A DNA stretch of 36,620 nucleotides, taken from positions 1 through 36,620 of the IMG/VR virus record IMGVR_UViG_2675903417_000002; one strand, written 5' to 3'. The first letter of the stretch is position 1, and every line of letters starts with the position of its first letter. Shown here one piece after another: positions 3,551-32,575 of the stretch. The notes below the pieces were generated by a model. That model had not been told where the DNA came from. It saw only the letters and a list, made by a program, of their open reading frames with translations, and did not search any database. Position numbers and translations under genes: made by a program. The stretch comes from a virus. Lineage: Duplodnaviria; Heunggongvirae; Uroviricota; Caudoviricetes.

Positions 3551-3950
3551 GCCATTCAATATCGGGTGCTGTTGAAGTATCAACACGCATCAGCAGCACA
3601 CGGTATTTCTTCCATTCGGTGAGAGTTGAAGTTTCTTCATCAGTTGCGATATCAGCATCAACAGCATCCTGACGCCAGGATATTTCACTGTCAGCTTTTT
3701 CCCGTAATTGGGATTTTTTAACTTCAGCAATAGCTATTAATTCCTTTTTGGTCGGCTGAGGAATATCTATCAGTGCTGGTTTTCCATTCAGTGTTCCAAT
3801 CTGTTTTCCTGGTGGAATATCCGTAAATAACTTTTTATGTTCTTCCTCACTGACTATTACACCATCATCAGGCCACAGACCTGATGCCTCAAATTTTTCT
3901 TTCTCCGATATGGGGAAAAAGCCATTTGCTTTAGCGCTCCATACGTACAT
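3522..3950 (-). CDS. Tail fibre assembly protein (partner of the expressed fibre)
   Basis: 142-aa ORF directly downstream of the expressed tail-fibre gene; Tfa-like sequence; convergent with the other Tfa as in Mu G / e14 P segments. Confidence 0.7.
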
Positions 3951-24295: not shown

Positions 24296-25081
24296 TTATC
24301 GGGGAAGGTGTTGCTTTGGTCCTTCCCAACTGAAGGAATTAAAAACTTTTTGGATTAAATTTTGCAACTTTGCCAAAGACTCTGTCGAAATATCTACTTC
24401 ACCATAATAGCCATCAGCCATAGTGCACCCAAATTTAGTTCCGAATAAGTTATTCAACATCAATGCCCCCTGAGGTGCAACAACATGAATATTATTTACA
24501 GGTTTGAGTTTTATTGGCTTTGGTTCTTTCTCTGCACCAAGCCCACGAACTCTGTCTTCCATGTGTTGAGCTGAATTCCTTACCTTTCTTAAATCCGGAA
24601 AGTCTTTAGAAAGCTGTTCATGCAATTTTTTAATGTTCTCTGGCGCGCCATTTTCTTTTGAAATTACCTTTAAAAATTTATCAATAGCATCCAAAGCGTA
24701 GAGAAATGATTTTGCATGTAAGAAGATCAATCTGTGTTGATGAGCCAACGGATATTCACCGTTATTCCATTTTTCTCTTTTTAGACGTAGCTCGACCTCT
24801 GAAAAAACCTGTTCTGAATATTCATAAGGTTGATAACCAAACTCTTTACGAACCAGCATTTCCAGTGCTTGTCGTTTCTGTACATCAGCTTGCCATGTCT
24901 GAGAAATATTATCGAATTTACTGTTATTCTTAGTTCTTTCCTGTTCGAATAAATTTAATGCTACATTAGCATCATAAAATGCAGTTTCTAAATGGGATAA
25001 TAAGTTATTAAACGTCCATTCTAACTCTCTGTTTTCAAACTTAAGATTACTGCCTGGCTTGATTAACTCAAAAACATACAT
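24296..25081 (-). CDS. AT-rich moron protein of unknown function; candidate HEPN-like (Rx4H) toxin or defence protein
   Basis: 261-aa ORF in the Q-to-holin slot; low GC versus neighbours; motif RNSAQH fits Rx4-6H; ATG 25079-25081 with AGGGG RBS; own terminator. Confidence 0.6.
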   Translation of the reverse strand: MYVFELIKPGSNLKFENRELEWTFNNLLSHLETAFYDANVALNLFEQERTKNNSKFDNISQTWQADVQKRQALEMLVRKEFGYQPYEYSEQVFSEVELRLKREKWNNGEYPLAHQHRLIFLHAKSFLYALDAIDKFLKVISKENGAPENIKKLHEQLSKDFPDLRKVRNSAQHMEDRVRGLGAEKEPKPIKLKPVNNIHVVAPQGALMLNNLFGTKFGCTMADGYYGEVDISTESLAKLQNLIQKVFNSFSWEGPKQHLPR

Positions 25082-25155
25082 TTTTTCGACCCCTAGTTGT
25101 ATGGTCGAATAATTATATTACTAATTAATACCGTCATTCTGTTTTTACACAATAA

Positions 25156-25176
25156 AAAACCCGCTCAATGGCGAGT
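25156..25176 (-). terminator. Possible tR'-like weak terminator downstream of the late promoter
   Basis: 5-bp stem with one G-U pair followed by T6 on the minus strand. Confidence 0.3.
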
Positions 25177-25223
25177 TCTTGAAGGTTATCAACAGCAGAT
25201 ACATAAAGCCCATCGTTGAGGAA

Positions 25224-25252
25224 ATCTTATCCAGATTTTTTGAAAAATGCAA
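25224..25252 (-). promoter_or_regulatory. Candidate late promoter PR' (TTGCAT - 17 bp - TAAGAT)
   Basis: Hexamers read on the minus strand just downstream of the Q gene stop. Confidence 0.45.
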
Positions 25253-25283
25253 GTATCATGTCGCCATCTTCGTCGAAAATCAT

Positions 25284-26036
25284 TTATCTTGTCACCTTTC
25301 TCAATTGTGTCTCTGCATATGCTTCTTCCTGCCAGCACTTTGTAACCAGTTTATCAATGACATCTGCATATCCTTTGTACCACTGATAATCCGTCAGGTC
25401 TGGTACCAGCTTCTGGACATGATTCCGCGCCAGTGTGGTTGGTAAACGGCTAAATCGGTTTCCATTGCAACGCCCACAAATCTTATAAACAGGCGTGCCA
25501 TGAAGCCGGGTCCTTTTTTCATCCAGGACAATACCTTTACCCTTACACCCTCTGCACGCTGTGCTGACTTCTCCCTTACCATGACAATGCTGACATAGTT
25601 CCTTCACCCACTCTTCCTTGATAACAGATTCCCCGCTTCTGGAGTGTTTCACCACCTCGCGCAATACATTATGAAATCCAGTACCAGCACAATGCTCACA
25701 GCGAGCCTTACTTGCCGCAGACCTGGAATAATCAGCAAAGGCAAAATTCACAAGGTAAGGGATGATCTGTAACCGGATTTCTTCACTCAATTTGTTCAAT
25801 GTCGGGTTATCCAGTGCCATCGCGTAATTGAGCAGACCTTCAATCGCAAACTGAGGATCCTGAACACCAACTTTTGCCAGGAATAAGGCAAACCCAAGCG
25901 GTGCTTTCGACTGCACCATCCCCTGCGCAGCCATCACATCTGTAATTGTTAAACCACCCGAGCCTGTCGCCGGTGCGTCATCACTCAATTTTGGAGATTT
26001 TGGGGAGTAATATTTTGGTAAAGCTTCAAGGTTCAT
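25284..26036 (-). CDS. Late-gene antitermination protein Q
   Basis: 250-aa ORF with Cys-rich zinc-binding region (CEHCAGTG...CQHCHGKG...CRGCKGKG), positioned just upstream of the lysis genes. Confidence 0.75.
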   Translation of the reverse strand: MNLEALPKYYSPKSPKLSDDAPATGSGGLTITDVMAAQGMVQSKAPLGFALFLAKVGVQDPQFAIEGLLNYAMALDNPTLNKLSEEIRLQIIPYLVNFAFADYSRSAASKARCEHCAGTGFHNVLREVVKHSRSGESVIKEEWVKELCQHCHGKGEVSTACRGCKGKGIVLDEKRTRLHGTPVYKICGRCNGNRFSRLPTTLARNHVQKLVPDLTDYQWYKGYADVIDKLVTKCWQEEAYAETQLRKVTR

Positions 26037-26049
26037 GCTCGTTCTCCAC

Positions 26050-27045
26050 TTACGCCAGTACGCCTATTGCCAGCGCACGATCGATAAAACGAAATATCAG
26101 CTCCAGCTGGGAGCCATACTTCTCTTCAAATGCCACGGTATCCGCATGCAGCTCGTCGTGATGCTTTCTGCACAAAGGCAACACAAAGAGGTCATGCGCT
26201 TTTGTACCCATCCCACCCTGACCGTGGCCTATCAGGTGGTGGGGATCATCAGCAGGCTTTCCACAACATGCACACGGCTGTGTCTTAACCCAGCGCGTGT
26301 ACTTTTCATTAACCCAGCGGCGACGTTTTGGGCGTAACATAAAAGACTCCGGCGACTCCGGATCCACTTTCAGCGCCAGCACCTTTTTCGCCTTATCCTG
26401 GATGATGCTGGTGGCAGGAACCGAAGGCACAAGGTCACTTTCCCGGGTGACAGACGGCACAACAGGCTTCGGTAATCTCAGTGCCTTACGGGCTGCACTT
26501 TCCGGTAAGGCATCCGCCAGGTCATTACGAATCAGCCACCAGCACAGTTCCGGCATTGTCACAACGTGACTGTCATCAAAACCGAGATCCCGACGCACAA
26601 CAGACAACACCCAGCGGGCACAGTTATCCGTTGCCATTGATTCCAGCCGTTCCGTGAACTGATCGCGCAGCTGGTTATCGCAGTGCCAGCACAGACGGAT
26701 CGCGCCCGGCGCGTGTCGCATTGTGGTCATGTTCTCGCTGTGCCAGTCGGAATGAGGCCACTGACAGCCCTTTTCACGAAGTAACCAGCTTTCAAGACAT
26801 TCCACGCCACCAGCACGACGGATCACTGCCTCATTGCAGAACACGGCTCGAACGGCAGGATCATCCGCCAGCGGTTGTGATGCCGCGGGAACGGCACCAC
26901 TGGCGAAAGATGAATAACGTTCCGGCTCAGGCTCCAGCAGGACACGCCCCTGCATAAACAGGGGCATCAGCTCTGAACCGGGTCTGAACAATACGATCCC
27001 CATACGCGGGGCTATTTCAGGGGTCAGTAGTGCTCTCACGGTCAC
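26050..27045 (-). CDS. DUF968 / YdfU-like protein
   Basis: 331-aa ORF with C-terminal Cys/His cluster (CACCGKPADDPHHLIGHGQGG...CRKHHDELH); resemblance to Qin prophage YdfU is from memory. Confidence 0.55.
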   Translation of the reverse strand: MTVRALLTPEIAPRMGIVLFRPGSELMPLFMQGRVLLEPEPERYSSFASGAVPAASQPLADDPAVRAVFCNEAVIRRAGGVECLESWLLREKGCQWPHSDWHSENMTTMRHAPGAIRLCWHCDNQLRDQFTERLESMATDNCARWVLSVVRRDLGFDDSHVVTMPELCWWLIRNDLADALPESAARKALRLPKPVVPSVTRESDLVPSVPATSIIQDKAKKVLALKVDPESPESFMLRPKRRRWVNEKYTRWVKTQPCACCGKPADDPHHLIGHGQGGMGTKAHDLFVLPLCRKHHDELHADTVAFEEKYGSQLELIFRFIDRALAIGVLA

Positions 27046-27875: not shown

Positions 27876-28265
27876 TCAGGCGGCTGCACCCGCCGTTTTC
27901 TCGTACTTACTGATAGTGATCTCGACCTTCCCTTCCGGGATAACCGGTCCCCACTCCACCAGCATTCTTTTCACCTGACTGTCGTCTTCCCACACACCCG
28001 CGTGGGTCAGGGCGTCAAACAGCGCCTTGTTATAGTTGTCCAGATCGCGGATCCGGTTATCCGGAGGAAACAACACGATCTCCACTGAAGCAGGTGCCGA
28101 CGTTGGTTTCGGCAGACGACGTAACTGCTCAACTATTGCTGCGCACGCCGCGCTCTGGAATTTTCGCCCCGCCGCGCTTATCAGGCTCTTACCAGCAAAC
28201 GCCCCTTTGTTGGGGTGTCGCCAGTACGTGTTCACGCTGGGCGGAAAAGGCAGGATCAGCTTCAT
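27876..28265 (-). CDS. rusA: RusA-family Holliday junction resolvase
   Basis: 129-aa ORF; conserved RusA core (DLDNYNKALFDALTHAGVWEDDSQV) aligns with E. coli RusA as recalled. Confidence 0.8.
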   Translation of the reverse strand: MKLILPFPPSVNTYWRHPNKGAFAGKSLISAAGRKFQSAACAAIVEQLRRLPKPTSAPASVEIVLFPPDNRIRDLDNYNKALFDALTHAGVWEDDSQVKRMLVEWGPVIPEGKVEITISKYEKTAGAAA

Positions 28266-28588
28266 ACTTTCAGGCCCCTCTCATGTAACCAGTGGGTTGC
28301 ACGCAGCCTTGCGTTTTCCTCACCGGCAAGCAGTGAGCGGATAATCCCGACCGCCTCGCTGTCGTCGTCCTTCACCGCGGTATGAAGCGTGATGCCCCGG
28401 GCCACGCCACGCTTTATCGTGATGACGCCTTTTTTCTCCAGTGCGCGAAGATGCTCCACCGCTGCATTCACTGAACGGTATCCCAGCATGGTTGCCACCT
28501 CCTGATTGGTTGGCGGGAAGCCACGTTCTTTCTGATAAGAAATCAGCATATCCAGCACCTGCTGCTGGCATTGAGTTAACCTCGTCAT
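28262..28588 (-). CDS. LexA N-terminal DNA-binding-domain-only protein (no S24 peptidase domain)
   Basis: 108-aa ORF aligns residue-by-residue with the LexA winged-helix domain (LT.RQQ.V.D.I...G.PPT..E.A..LG.RS.NAA.EHL.AL..KGVI.I..G..RGI.L); ATGA overlaps with both neighbours. Confidence 0.7.
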   Translation of the reverse strand: MTRLTQCQQQVLDMLISYQKERGFPPTNQEVATMLGYRSVNAAVEHLRALEKKGVITIKRGVARGITLHTAVKDDDSEAVGIIRSLLAGEENARLRATHWLHERGLKV

Positions 28589-29238
28589 GCCGCCATCTCC
28601 CTGACCAGTTTTTCTGCCTGCTGGCGAACCTGCGCCAGAAAGGCCTCACCACATGCCTCAAGTTCATCGCGCCCGATGTAGCTGATTGCCGGTCCCTTCC
28701 AGGTCTTGTCGAAAACAGCAATAGCACCAGCGAAGAAAGCGCCTGTCGGCACCTGCTTCTCATCCTTCGGGATAAACCAGGCAGGCAGTTCAAAACCAAT
28801 ACGCCCGCGAATAAAAGCAATATGATCTGCATCTTCCGGCCACCACACTTCGCTGGTGGCAGCTTTGATCAGGAAAACATAGCGCCCGCCTTTATCACGC
28901 ATGGCACTGGCATGCTTCATGATGTAACGCATGCCGGTGATGTATTGCCCCTCATGCTGACTGGCGCGGCTGTATGGGGGATTACCAAAGGCAGCACCTT
29001 TAAGCTCCGCAAGGCGTTCTGACCAGTCATGCGCCAGCGCGTTGTCTTCCGCCGTGTAATACGCAGCACATTTGGCGTTATCACCGTCAGTGAACAGATC
29101 CAGAACAAACGGGCCAAACAGGGTGTTAATTCCCCAGAAAATGTTGTCCGGCGTGCGCCACTGATCGCCCACTTCCTTCAGTTCATGGGCTGGTTTGTTC
29201 CGCAGTTCCGCCAGCGCCTGGCAATATTTATTACTCAT
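28585..29238 (-). CDS. Phage Dam-family N6-adenine DNA methyltransferase (orphan)
   Basis: NPPY motif (FGNPPYS); start set at Met overlapping the upstream stop (TAATG). Confidence 0.7.
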   Translation of the reverse strand: MSNKYCQALAELRNKPAHELKEVGDQWRTPDNIFWGINTLFGPFVLDLFTDGDNAKCAAYYTAEDNALAHDWSERLAELKGAAFGNPPYSRASQHEGQYITGMRYIMKHASAMRDKGGRYVFLIKAATSEVWWPEDADHIAFIRGRIGFELPAWFIPKDEKQVPTGAFFAGAIAVFDKTWKGPAISYIGRDELEACGEAFLAQVRQQAEKLVREMAA

Positions 29239-29732
29239 TAAGCCCCCACGTAATTCCCTGAGAGATACCACTCTTCACCTGATGCAGCCCGCTTACTGCT
29301 TTTCCGTAAACACCGTTCACGACGCGCCAGAAAATTGTTTCGTTCTGGCTGGGAGTGGCTTTCACGGAATGCCGCCATCCACACCGTTGCAGCACGACGG
29401 TATAAGCCCCTGGACTCCAGTTCTTCCGCCTGGCGGGTCAGGCACAAAATCACCCGCGGGTCGTTAGTGCCGACATAGAAATTGCGCACAGGTCTGGTTT
29501 CACGAACTGGTTGTAGTTCCGGATCCTGCGCTCTCTCAGTCAGGCGCGGGAAATGTCTGTGTGTATCTCCTTCACAACGGTGAGCCACACGCCCACTCTG
29601 ACGTAACTTGCTTGCTGACTGCAGAACGCGCTGCCGTGAGTAACCTGCAAAAGCATCCGCAATGTCTCCGGAAGTACAGCCCGGATGGGCTTCAATGAAT
29701 TTCTGAACGTCATTCAAAAGACTCATGCTCAC
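29238..29732 (-). CDS. Hypothetical protein, possible winged-helix N-terminus
   Basis: 164-aa ORF translationally coupled between the O-like gene and the methyltransferase. Confidence 0.4.
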   Translation of the reverse strand: MSMSLLNDVQKFIEAHPGCTSGDIADAFAGYSRQRVLQSASKLRQSGRVAHRCEGDTHRHFPRLTERAQDPELQPVRETRPVRNFYVGTNDPRVILCLTRQAEELESRGLYRRAATVWMAAFRESHSQPERNNFLARRERCLRKSSKRAASGEEWYLSGNYVGA

Positions 29733-30670
29733 CCCCTGAATCCTGCCGGGATCTGGCTGTAGTCCACATTGTCGTAACTGGCTTTGAAGTACGGGTCTTC
29801 GCGTTTTTCTGTGTACGTGCTGACGGACGGCGATAAGCGCAGGGAAAGCTCATCCCATTTTTCCCGCAGCTTCGACGGGCTGAGCACGTTACGGCACCAG
29901 AACGGATCGCGGCTGACGCGGCTGTACATCTCGCAGATTTGTTTGTGAGTACGACCATCCTGCACACACATCAGGCGAATTTCGTTTGCCCAGGCTGTCC
30001 AGTTCGGTTCTTTGGGACGAACCACCTCGCCGTCACATTCGGCAGCCTGCTCGTACAGGGCGATGATTTTTTTCCAGAGCCACTGTGCGCAGGTCAAATC
30101 ATCCTGCGTCCCCCACTGGCGCTTTTTAGGGCTGAATACAACCGCATCAGGATGGCGAGTTAAAAAATCCTGTTCAGCCGTCTGCGTGTCCGGTTGCGAA
30201 GCGTCCGGACGAGAAGGTTTTTTATCTGACGGATCATGTTTTGATTTTACTGACGGATCCCCGCCAGATTCTGACGGGTGAAAACCCGCTTTTTTGCCAG
30301 ATTTCGACGCATCAAATTTTGACGGGTCAGATTTTGATGCGTCAGATTTTGACGGGTCAGAATCTGACAGTTGAGAAAATGCCGCTGCCTGAAGCTTCGC
30401 AACGTTAAGCTGATAAACATTCGACGCATTGCGGTTACCCTGGCGACGCGCCTTACGCGTTAACCAGCCTTCTGCTTCCAGCCGTGCGATAGCCGTTCTG
30501 ACGGTACTCATCCCCGCGCCAATCTGACGGGCAATGGTTTCAATTGATGGCCAGCACACACCTTCGTCATTACTGAAATCAGCCAGGCGGGCCATAATTG
30601 CCACGCTGGATAACTTCATGCCTGATGCAGCGCAACCATCCCATACATAGCCGGTTAATTTAGTGCTCAT
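29729..30670 (-). CDS. Replication initiation protein (lambda O-like; N-terminal HTH, repeat linker, C-terminal domain)
   Basis: 313-aa ORF; N-terminal winged-helix typical of phage initiators; in-gene iteron array encoding DPSKS/DASKS repeats. Confidence 0.65.
   Translation of the reverse strand: MSTKLTGYVWDGCAASGMKLSSVAIMARLADFSNDEGVCWPSIETIARQIGAGMSTVRTAIARLEAEGWLTRKARRQGNRNASNVYQLNVAKLQAAAFSQLSDSDPSKSDASKSDPSKFDASKSGKKAGFHPSESGGDPSVKSKHDPSDKKPSRPDASQPDTQTAEQDFLTRHPDAVVFSPKKRQWGTQDDLTCAQWLWKKIIALYEQAAECDGEVVRPKEPNWTAWANEIRLMCVQDGRTHKQICEMYSRVSRDPFWCRNVLSPSKLREKWDELSLRLSPSVSTYTEKREDPYFKASYDNVDYSQIPAGFRG
30246..30373. repeat. Iteron array (about seven 15-bp direct repeats, consensus AGATTTTGACGGGTC) inside the replication gene: candidate origin
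   Basis: Tandem near-identical 15-mers read directly, in phase with the pentapeptide repeats of the initiator. Confidence 0.55.
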
Positions 30671-30679
30671 GACCGACCT

Positions 30680-31018
30680 CTATTTCCCTGAATTTACGAC
30701 GAAACTGTTCGAGCGGACTGAAGCATTCATGCTCATAACCTTCGCGGAGGTAGATAACCCGTTGTGTTTCCGGCTCCCAACGAATGACTCTGACGGGCAC
30801 TCCGTAGTGATCTTTGAACCAGCGGTTAACTTGTCGCAAAGGACTGTCTCCTTCTGCCGGTTGAAATCACCCACAGCCCACTCTGCAAAGCTGTGGGTGA
30901 CAATTTCCCTGTCACCTGGTACATTCACTGCATAGCAATACTCCACCTTCGCTTTTCCACCCGGTACAGGAAGCGCAATCAGTTGCGAGCGACGGTAGTG
31001 TGTTGTTAAACTGTTCAT
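30680..31018 (-). CDS. Hypothetical protein (112 aa)
   Basis: ATGA overlap with the upstream regulatory gene suggests coupling; an antisense ORF of similar length exists, so frame choice is uncertain. Confidence 0.35.
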
Positions 31019-31900: not shown

Positions 31901-32575
31901 ATGAAAACAATCCATGACATCCGGCGGTCTAACGCCAGAAAACTGAGAGATGGTGTTGGCGGGAATTCTTCCTTTGCCACTATGATTGATCGCGAGCCAA
32001 CCCAGACCAGCAGGTTTATGGGAGATGGTGCTACTAAAAATATCGGTGACAGCATGGCACGACACATCGAAAAATGTTTCGACCTGCCTGTCGGATGGCT
32101 CGATCAAGAACACCAGACAACGAACATCACAAAAAAACCTGATGTTTCAATCACTAATAAACAAATCACATTAGTCCCTGTCATATCATGGGTACAGGCC
32201 GGAGCATGGAAAGAAGTTGGATATTCTGAGGTTGATTTGAGCACAGCAGAAACGTATCCCTGCCCTGTACCCTGTGGGGAAATGACTTATATCTTGCGGG
32301 TGATAGGTGATTCAATGATTGATGAGTACCGCCCGGGAGACATGATTTTTGTCGATCCTGAAGTACCTGCCTGCCACGGTGACGACGTTATTGCATTGAT
32401 GCACGATACAGGTGAAACCACCTTCAAAAGGTTGATAGAAGATGGGACACAGCGTTATCTCAAAGCGTTAAACCCAAACTGGCCTGAGCCTTACATTAAG
32501 ATCAACGGTAATTGCTCTATAATTGGTACAGTGATTTTCTCAGGAAAACCAAGAAGATACAAAATCAAAGCCTAA
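31901..32575 (+). CDS. CI-like prophage repressor with C-terminal S24 (LexA-like) autopeptidase domain
   Basis: 224-aa ORF; C-terminal domain closely resembles P22 c2 / LexA S24 domain (VIGDSM, FKRL, KINGNC); N-terminal XRE-like HTH. Confidence 0.8.
   Translation: MKTIHDIRRSNARKLRDGVGGNSSFATMIDREPTQTSRFMGDGATKNIGDSMARHIEKCFDLPVGWLDQEHQTTNITKKPDVSITNKQITLVPVISWVQAGAWKEVGYSEVDLSTAETYPCPVPCGEMTYILRVIGDSMIDEYRPGDMIFVDPEVPACHGDDVIALMHDTGETTFKRLIEDGTQRYLKALNPNWPEPYIKINGNCSIIGTVIFSGKPRRYKIKA

Follow-up and report, generated by a model that had tools for sequence, protein, structure and literature searches.

The 36,620-nt stretch analyzed here, positions 1 to 36,620 of IMGVR_UViG_2675903417_000002 (hereafter the window), is a lambdoid prophage from E. 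coli or Shigella, similar to SfV and mEp460, and encodes a 108-aa protein resembling the DNA-binding half of the SOS repressor LexA. LexN is our working name for this LexA-N-terminal-domain-only protein. Our analyses clearly show that LexN truly has the LexA DNA-binding fold and is kept under selection, and that its gene, located after the replication genes and before Q, is part of the delayed-early (nin) operon, where it is translationally coupled to dam and rusA. Its function is more speculative. Tentatively, and at just under an even call, we favor the idea that LexN is a dimeric, RecA-insensitive LexA surrogate that represses SOS-box promoters in trans. The observation itself is already on public record, as the gene has been annotated for years as encoding a LexA DNA-binding-domain protein, and GIL01 already provides an example of a phage protein with a LexA DNA-binding domain that lacks a protease. 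The searchable literature on the enterobacterial LexN family holds annotations only, with no functional study.

The gene and the parts of its product lie in the window as follows, with helix limits and confidence taken from an AlphaFold2 (AF2) model.

28262 to 28588, minus strand: LexN coding sequence, from the open reading frame (ORF) list, with an ATG start and 108 aa.
28382 to 28588, minus strand: LexA-type winged helix-turn-helix, residues 1-69, with helices at 6-22, 28-35 and 40-52 and a beta-wing at 56-68.
28433 to 28474, minus strand: recognition helix SVNAAVEHLRALEK, residues 39-52, placed by the HMMER alignment with E. coli LexA.
28367 to 28381, minus strand: acidic linker, residues 70-74, of low confidence (predicted local distance difference test, pLDDT, below 50 for 71-74).
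28280 to 28366, minus strand: family-specific helical hairpin, residues 75-103, with helices at 75-88 and 93-103 (pLDDT ~90).

Assignment of the first of these domains to LexA is supported by sequence profiles and by structure. The full 65-position Pfam model LexA_DNA_bind (PF01726) aligns with residues 1-65 (E=3e-19; 69 bits against a cutoff of 23.7), and the best matches of a HMMER search against the PDB are to E. coli LexA (1lea, 3jso; E ~1e-15), pairing LexN 'rsvnaavehlr' with LexA 'rspnaaeehlk'. We derived the AF2 model (pLDDT 85) from 24 family sequences, and it shows LexA's helices and two-stranded wing. When fitted to the N-terminal domain of LexA bound to DNA (3jso), it deviates by 1.0 Å across 67-68 residues, and residues 2-69 are 50% identical. 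Foldseek comparisons with 3jso, 1lea and 1jhh gave root-mean-square deviations of 1.0-1.3 Å and 49-51% identity, and MarR/MepR, GntR, BlaI-like and other winged helix-turn-helix families scored orders of magnitude worse against the model. By Pfam, PDB and Foldseek alike, therefore, LexN resembles the winged helix of LexA itself, not that of a different winged-helix family. A first-pass annotation of this DNA, made from the sequence alone, had matched the recognition helix SVNAAVEHLR with SPNAAEEHLK of LexA, as the PDB search now does independently, and had aligned the protein with LexA along its length. That alignment holds for the winged helix of residues 1-69 and fails for residues 75-103, which form a separate hairpin. 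In a search for defense systems with PADLOC, the sole match of LexN was a weak one, to a CARF-associated winged helix-turn-helix (E=5e-4), which we disregarded.

The other half of LexA is missing. A Pfam search of the 108 residues found no Peptidase_S24 match, and the NCBIfam LexA equivalog TIGR00498 aligns over model positions 1-91 only, at 70.7 bits against a cutoff of 110.95. E. coli LexA carries an S24 peptidase and dimerization domain with a Ser119/Lys156 dyad, whereas LexN has a 30-residue hairpin in its place. Because the S24 catalytic domain is absent, self-cleavage stimulated by RecA* is impossible for LexN, and the earlier claims that the domain is lacking and that the protein is non-cleavable both stand. 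The hairpin (residues 75-103) corresponds to no Pfam family. Its consensus, EAVxxIRALLAGEENARxRAxxWL, is kept in relatives down to 38-50% identity, with A97 and L101 invariant, and we infer that it is a dimerization or partner-binding module.

The residues that would read DNA are largely those of LexA. Helix III of E. coli LexA contacts DNA through S39, N41, A42, E44 and E45 (PMC3091678); four of the five (S39, N41, A42 and E45) are identical in LexN, and E44 is replaced by valine. H46 and K53 are also shared with E. coli LexA, as are the wing residues R64-G65-I66, which are invariant across the LexN family and LexA. Full-length, S24-bearing LexAs of Betaproteobacteria carry the identical helix SVNAAVEH (pattern scan, one genome per species), and E. 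coli-type CTGT-N8-ACAG boxes are found ~0.5-1.2 kb upstream of those betaproteobacterial lexA genes. At the two such loci examined in detail (L096 and L100), tandem boxes lie before a same-strand ORF that precedes lexA. Beta- and gammaproteobacteria reportedly use this box in common. The occurrence of SVNAAVEH in betaproteobacterial LexAs with E. coli-type boxes suggests that Val44 is compatible with canonical recognition. Judged from its sequence, binding of SOS boxes by LexN is plausible.

The gene is abundant and constrained. LexN is the same protein as SfV Orf42 and mEp460 gp46 ("LexA DNA binding domain protein"; PGAP name "LexA family transcriptional regulator"), encoded in the same dam-lexN-rusA-kilA-DUF968-Q context with no difference, and it matches phrog_362 ("transcriptional repressor") at 2e-59, residues 1-108 against profile positions 1-106. 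Copies in phages and E. coli are 96-99% identical in amino acid sequence, and the genes of mEp460, SfV, SfII, cdtI and Stx2 phages are 97-99% identical to that of the window. At a threshold of 90% DNA identity the gene occurs in 2233 of 5426 complete E. coli genomes, which carry up to four copies each. Among 83 copies we found 43 distinct DNA alleles and just 11 proteins. The ratio of nonsynonymous to synonymous polymorphism (pN/pS) comes to 0.06 for the whole gene, with 0.02 for the winged helix and 0.15 for the tail, and the gene is under strong purifying selection. An exhaustive HMMER scan recovered full-length relatives down to 38-52% identity; those with a named source are all from Enterobacteriaceae (Citrobacter, Cronobacter, Kosakonia, Enterobacter, Cedecea, Klebsiella and Salmonella).

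The genomic setting is equally well defined. Escherichia phage Kati shares 99.5% identity with the 1.6 kb around the LexN gene, and mEp460, SfV, SfII and several Stx2a, Stx2c and Stx2k phages share 97-98%. The minus strand reads, in order, cro, a cII-like gene, the replication gene, a PerC/YfdN-like gene, dam, LexN, rusA, a KilA-N gene, DUF968/HNH, Q and then pR'/tR'. The elements nearest to LexN are these.

28585 to 29238, minus strand: dam, the 5' neighbor, encoding a phage N6-adenine DNA methyltransferase (PF05869; Pfam Dam 1.2e-45, TIGR01712 1.7e-76), with its start at 29238 inferred from the 654-nt mEp460 homologue.
28597 to 28601, minus strand: GGGAG Shine-Dalgarno sequence inside the 3' end of dam, 8 nt 5' of the LexN ATG, read from the sequence.
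27876 to 28265, minus strand: rusA, the 3' neighbor, encoding a RusA Holliday-junction resolvase (Pfam RusA 6e-15, phrog_34).
26050 to 27045, minus strand: gene for a DUF968/YdfU HNH-type protein (Pfam DUF968 3.5e-81).

The stop codon of dam overlaps the LexN ATG (28588-28586) in an ATGA at 28585-28588, and the TGA stop of LexN overlaps the ATG of rusA in a second ATGA at 28262-28265. The first-pass annotation had placed a 108-aa ORF at 28262-28588 and proposed that it is translationally coupled with dam and rusA in an early operon. The ORF is real, on the minus strand, with an ATG start and GGGAG upstream, and the overlaps at both of its ends, together with its nin-region position, bear out the coupling. 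The slot is conserved: divergent loci from mEp390, Klebsiella, Edwardsiella, Kosakonia, Buttiauxella and Enterobacter, as well as mEp460, keep LexN between the replication genes and Q, and rusA comes next after LexN in most of the divergent loci (tblastn synteny table).

The S24-less proteins in and around this family differ in what follows the winged helix. In Edwardsiella phage EPP-1 the same nin slot holds a tail-less, 71-aa LexA domain with the helix SPNAAEDH (L084:3995-4210), and in an Enterobacter metagenome-assembled genome the slot is occupied by a 157-aa form whose C-terminal domain is unrelated (L095:8001-8453), which suggests that the hairpin tail is a swappable module. Three metagenomic proteins (P0128, P0130 and P0150) have two LexA winged helices in tandem, also without S24. 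Structure predictions for viral proteins indicate that S24-less LexA DNA-binding domains are widespread (Mycobacterium phage Wildcat, tectiviruses, uncultured phages). Isolated LexA N-terminal domain binds operators weakly, so that dimerization would be needed, and the S24-less proteins with a hairpin, another domain or tandem helices agree with this. It is tempting to conclude that a LexA domain without S24 needs two presented reading heads.

In the mechanism we propose, the hairpin would dimerize LexN, and the dimer would recognize LexA-type CTGT half-sites, in SOS boxes or close variants of them. Once the early operon is on, LexN would act as a RecA-insensitive surrogate for LexA and re-occupy SOS-box promoters, either after induction, when host LexA has been cleaved, or upon infection of a damaged cell. 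Its targets might be the SOS genes of the host as well as promoters under LexA control that related prophages commonly carry (those of KilA-N antirepressor-like genes, dinI and morons). By acting there, LexN would damp the SOS response and the induction of rival elements, or set their timing. The LexA(Ind-) mutants S119A and G85D (1jhh, 1jhf) offer an analogy, in that a RecA*-resistant LexA-type binder keeps SOS promoters shut. These mutants, however, retain the C-terminal dimerization domain and wild-type operator geometry, whereas any dimerization of LexN would be through an unrelated hairpin. LexN is also encoded in a prophage operon, while E. coli lexA is an autoregulated chromosomal gene.

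The neighborhoods of related genes are consistent with an SOS-related role. We scored SOS boxes with a provisional position weight matrix (PWM) built from E. coli operators, on which the training sites score 13-27; strong matches agree on sight with the textbook consensus TACTGTATATATATACAGTA. In the Klebsiella/Enterobacter subfamily, 28 of 34 viral loci have a match 437-690 nt upstream of the LexN gene, scoring 17-29 and mostly at least 21. Two Klebsiella loci (L093:7315-9567 and L113:2300-5165) show a terminator, a sigma-70 promoter with the box over its -10 element, dinI (Pfam match 2.9e-25), orf85, LexN, orf67, DUF968 and a Q-like antiterminator, so that a late-gene regulator appears to sit in a LexA-controlled operon. 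In an Enterobacter locus (L097:7464-9902) the box lies just past the -10 element, dinI is missing and no upstream terminator was seen. LexN thus appears to be SOS-induced together with dinI in this subfamily. DinI, like LexN, is a small protein of lambdoid prophages, and it is SOS-damping and co-transcribed with LexN from the SOS-box promoter there; DinI acts on the RecA filament, however, and not on DNA operators, and the window has no dinI beside its LexN gene. Edwardsiella phage EPP-1 carries a box in the intergenic region before its LexN cluster.

Of 80 loci of the E. coli type, 23 have a strong box within the linker-coding part of cI, 24 have one ahead of a methylase moron that lies 3' of Q, and four (L056:6765-6784, and also L059, L022 and L072) have one between rusA and the KilA-N gene, which is antirepressor-like by PHROG; there the box belongs to a promoter for KilA-N. 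The window itself has no such rusA-KilA-N promoter, as the two genes overlap (27876-27889). Taken over the loci of its relatives, the LexN gene lives in an SOS-wired neighborhood, which fits an SOS-related role without proving that LexN binds the boxes.

The boxes within repressor genes are a separate curiosity. A near-consensus SOS box lies in the linker between the HTH and S24 domains of a cI-like repressor gene in mEp460 (L001:11225-11244) and in a Shigella flexneri prophage (L085:5103-5122; TACTGTATGTAAAAACAGTA and TACTGTATATAAAAACAGTA, respectively), and is absent from the window's cI (31901-32575). There is no obvious explanation for an intragenic LexA-type site in a phage repressor gene.

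The first-pass annotation had suggested, as plausible but unproven, that the protein binds SOS boxes and modulates the host SOS response or prophage induction. The evidence on this idea points both ways, and several observations weigh against a LexA surrogate. The window contains no perfect CTGT-N8-ACAG; its one-mismatch versions are at chance level (16 observed against 11.8 +/- 3.3 expected); and its best PWM score, 14.6 at position 3774, falls inside a coding region and within the range of shuffled sequence (maximum 12.1 +/- 2.5). On these three grounds we rejected a cis SOS-box target in the window phage, and the lack of a strong box implies that any such targets of LexN would be in trans, either in the host chromosome or in other prophages of the same cell. 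Within the protein, arginine 28 of LexA is asparagine in LexN, and position 44 is never glutamate in the tail-bearing family. Some relatives carry altered helices (SVNTIAGH in Citrobacter, SQNTVFIH in Salmonella, SPNAVALH in Klebsiella and SPNAATDM in Cronobacter), while their hosts should have one common SOS box. The Klebsiella loci encoding SPNAVALH nonetheless keep a canonical upstream box, so that host LexA alone can explain the box, and autoregulation by LexN is not proven. Finally, the sole characterized truncated LexA of a phage, gp6 of the betatectivirus GIL01, binds a different palindrome and activates transcription (PMC6182141).

The gp6 precedent leads to the main rival explanation, that LexN is a phage-specific transcription factor whose LexA winged helix has been retargeted to a non-SOS operator on the phage, where it would repress or activate a phage promoter, for example to time late or accessory genes. 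We regard this as possible, if on the doubtful side. The precedent is direct: gp6, a truncated LexA homologue, binds GaCACAnnTGTGaC, a palindrome that overlaps the -35 element of the late promoter P3, and activates that promoter (Fornelos et al. 2018, PMC6182141). The LexN gene always lies in the nin region just upstream of Q, and helix residues 42-45 differ among lineages whose hosts presumably share one SOS box, as would be expected of co-evolving phage operators. The missing Glu44 and the lack of an SOS box in the window would also follow. Against this, the window's helix is identical to that of genuine LexAs, the LexN gene has no promoter of its own or intergenic region for autoregulation, and no conserved candidate operator was found in the window regions and related loci that we examined.

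The pR' region (25081-25284) has no palindrome matching a late-promoter operator of the gp6 style, and the pR'/qut and cI/cro regions contain just GTAC-type cI operators and tR'. The only striking palindrome is a perfect 11-bp inverted repeat, TCACCCACAGC-N12-GCTGTGGGTGA, at 30867-30900. It falls within ORF 30680-31018 (phrog_1170), immediately 5' of a second ORF that overlaps the first (30660-30839, phrog_1343). None of the 102 related loci has this repeat, and we rejected it as an operator. When CTGT/ACAG palindromes were counted at spacers of 0-20 nt, ACAG-N14-CTGT occurred five times in the window against 0.3 expected from dinucleotide shuffles (6701, 13278, 30873, 31152 and 34418). All five sites are coding and share no further likeness. 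This candidate was rejected as well, because the shuffles ignore CTG/CAG codon bias and the excess is not significant over 42 orientation-spacing tests.

The likeness between LexN and gp6 is in any case one of architecture. Both are phage-encoded, consist of LexA_DNA_bind with no cleavage domain and are transcribed with early genes, and gp6 matches PF01726 at 7.9e-14. BLASTP of LexN against gp6 returned no alignment at E <= 100, and the sharing of only a Pfam domain suggests independent captures from proteobacterial and firmicute LexA. Moreover, gp6 is 66 aa long and ends at the wing, whereas LexN adds a conserved hairpin; and the helix of gp6 (SHKTAHRY) has diverged from the LexA of its host and binds a different palindrome, whereas LexN retains a host-type helix. 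An activator role has been demonstrated for gp6 alone.

It is also conceivable, though improbable, that LexN is not a transcription factor at all and serves as a DNA-binding accessory of the recombination and repair genes of the nin region (RusA, the DUF968 HNH protein and Dam), for example by targeting or modulating them. The coupling to rusA is kept in the distant phage mEp390, the two genes are closely juxtaposed in Kosakonia loci, and in every enterobacterial locus that is long enough a DUF968 gene lies within ~1.5 kb 3' of LexN, just before Q, even where rusA is missing. DUF968, however, occurs in 187 phage records and LexN in 61, and Dam is often absent beside LexN, so the linkage looks like nin-region synteny. 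We found no fusion or co-variation evidence, and constraint within the protein peaks at the sequence-specific recognition helix. An obligate partnership between LexN and DUF968 was ruled out, DUF968 being three times more widespread; since DUF968 occurs without LexN, LexN appears to be an optional passenger of the DUF968 module.

Very improbable, finally, is the proposal that the tail is a relic or mimic of the LexA cleavage-site region, serving as a pseudo-substrate or decoy for S24 peptidases (host LexA, phage cI) or RecA*: the HMMER and TIGR00498 alignments do reach LexA residues 86-91, with 'VG' and 'AGE' in register after an acidic run as in LexA and A88-G89 of LexN opposite the A84-G85 cleavage site, but Ala-Gly is not conserved in the Cronobacter, Cedecea, Klebsiella and Buttiauxella members, the segment is confidently predicted as helix and not as a strand-loop that docks in an S24 active site, LexN brings no protease of its own to cut there in cis, and constraint is strongest in the winged helix.

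Returning to LexN as a LexA surrogate, it is possible to extend the idea to whole populations, at a level of confidence below that which we give the surrogate itself. Many prophages of E. coli and other Enterobacteriaceae might carry a RecA-proof mini-LexA that re-closes SOS promoters while host LexA is being destroyed, its expression coming from the early operon in the window phage and from an SOS-induced dinI operon in the Klebsiella/Enterobacter subfamily. Such a protein could silence the mutagenic and repair genes of the host, colicin genes, and antirepressors that competing prophages keep under LexA control, thereby setting a hierarchy of prophage induction and limiting stress-induced mutagenesis in ~40% of E. 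coli strains. Should LexN bind SOS boxes, about four in ten E. coli genomes would harbor prophages with a RecA-independent override of the DNA-damage response, and the carriers would include Stx2a, Stx2c and Stx2k phages, Shigella serotype-converting phages and cdt phages. This would bear on the induction of Shiga-toxin phages, competition between co-resident prophages, antibiotic-induced mutagenesis, and SOS reporter and induction data from wild strains. If LexN instead has an operator of its own, phages would have made a LexA DNA-binding domain into a private regulator a second time, independently of GIL01 gp6. Either way, LexN is an abundant, well-conserved and cheap-to-test gene with no published function. 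E. coli K-12 presumably lacks it, because its related CPS-53 prophage seems to be truncated at dam.

Other features of the window deserve mention. RefSeq- and PHROG-derived phage annotations label the Dam methyltransferase (28585-29238) 'phosphoadenosine phosphosulfate reductase', which appears to be a misannotation propagated from phrog_33262. Directly 5' of dam, in the same operon, is a gene for a PerC/YfdN-family regulator (29238-29732, minus strand); prophage PerC/Pch homologues regulate the locus of enterocyte effacement (LEE) island in enteropathogenic and enterohemorrhagic E. coli (EPEC and EHEC). A 261-aa moron (24296-25081, minus strand) precedes the lysis genes, flanked by tR' (25180-25155) on one side and by a strong terminator (24279-24252) on the other. 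It belongs by its match to PHROG 5322, a family of unknown function, and neither Pfam nor PADLOC gives a credible match. Iteron-like inverted repeats, made of GTCAGATTTTGAC units, occupy positions 30306-30368 inside the replication-initiator gene (29729-30670) and are probably the phage origin.

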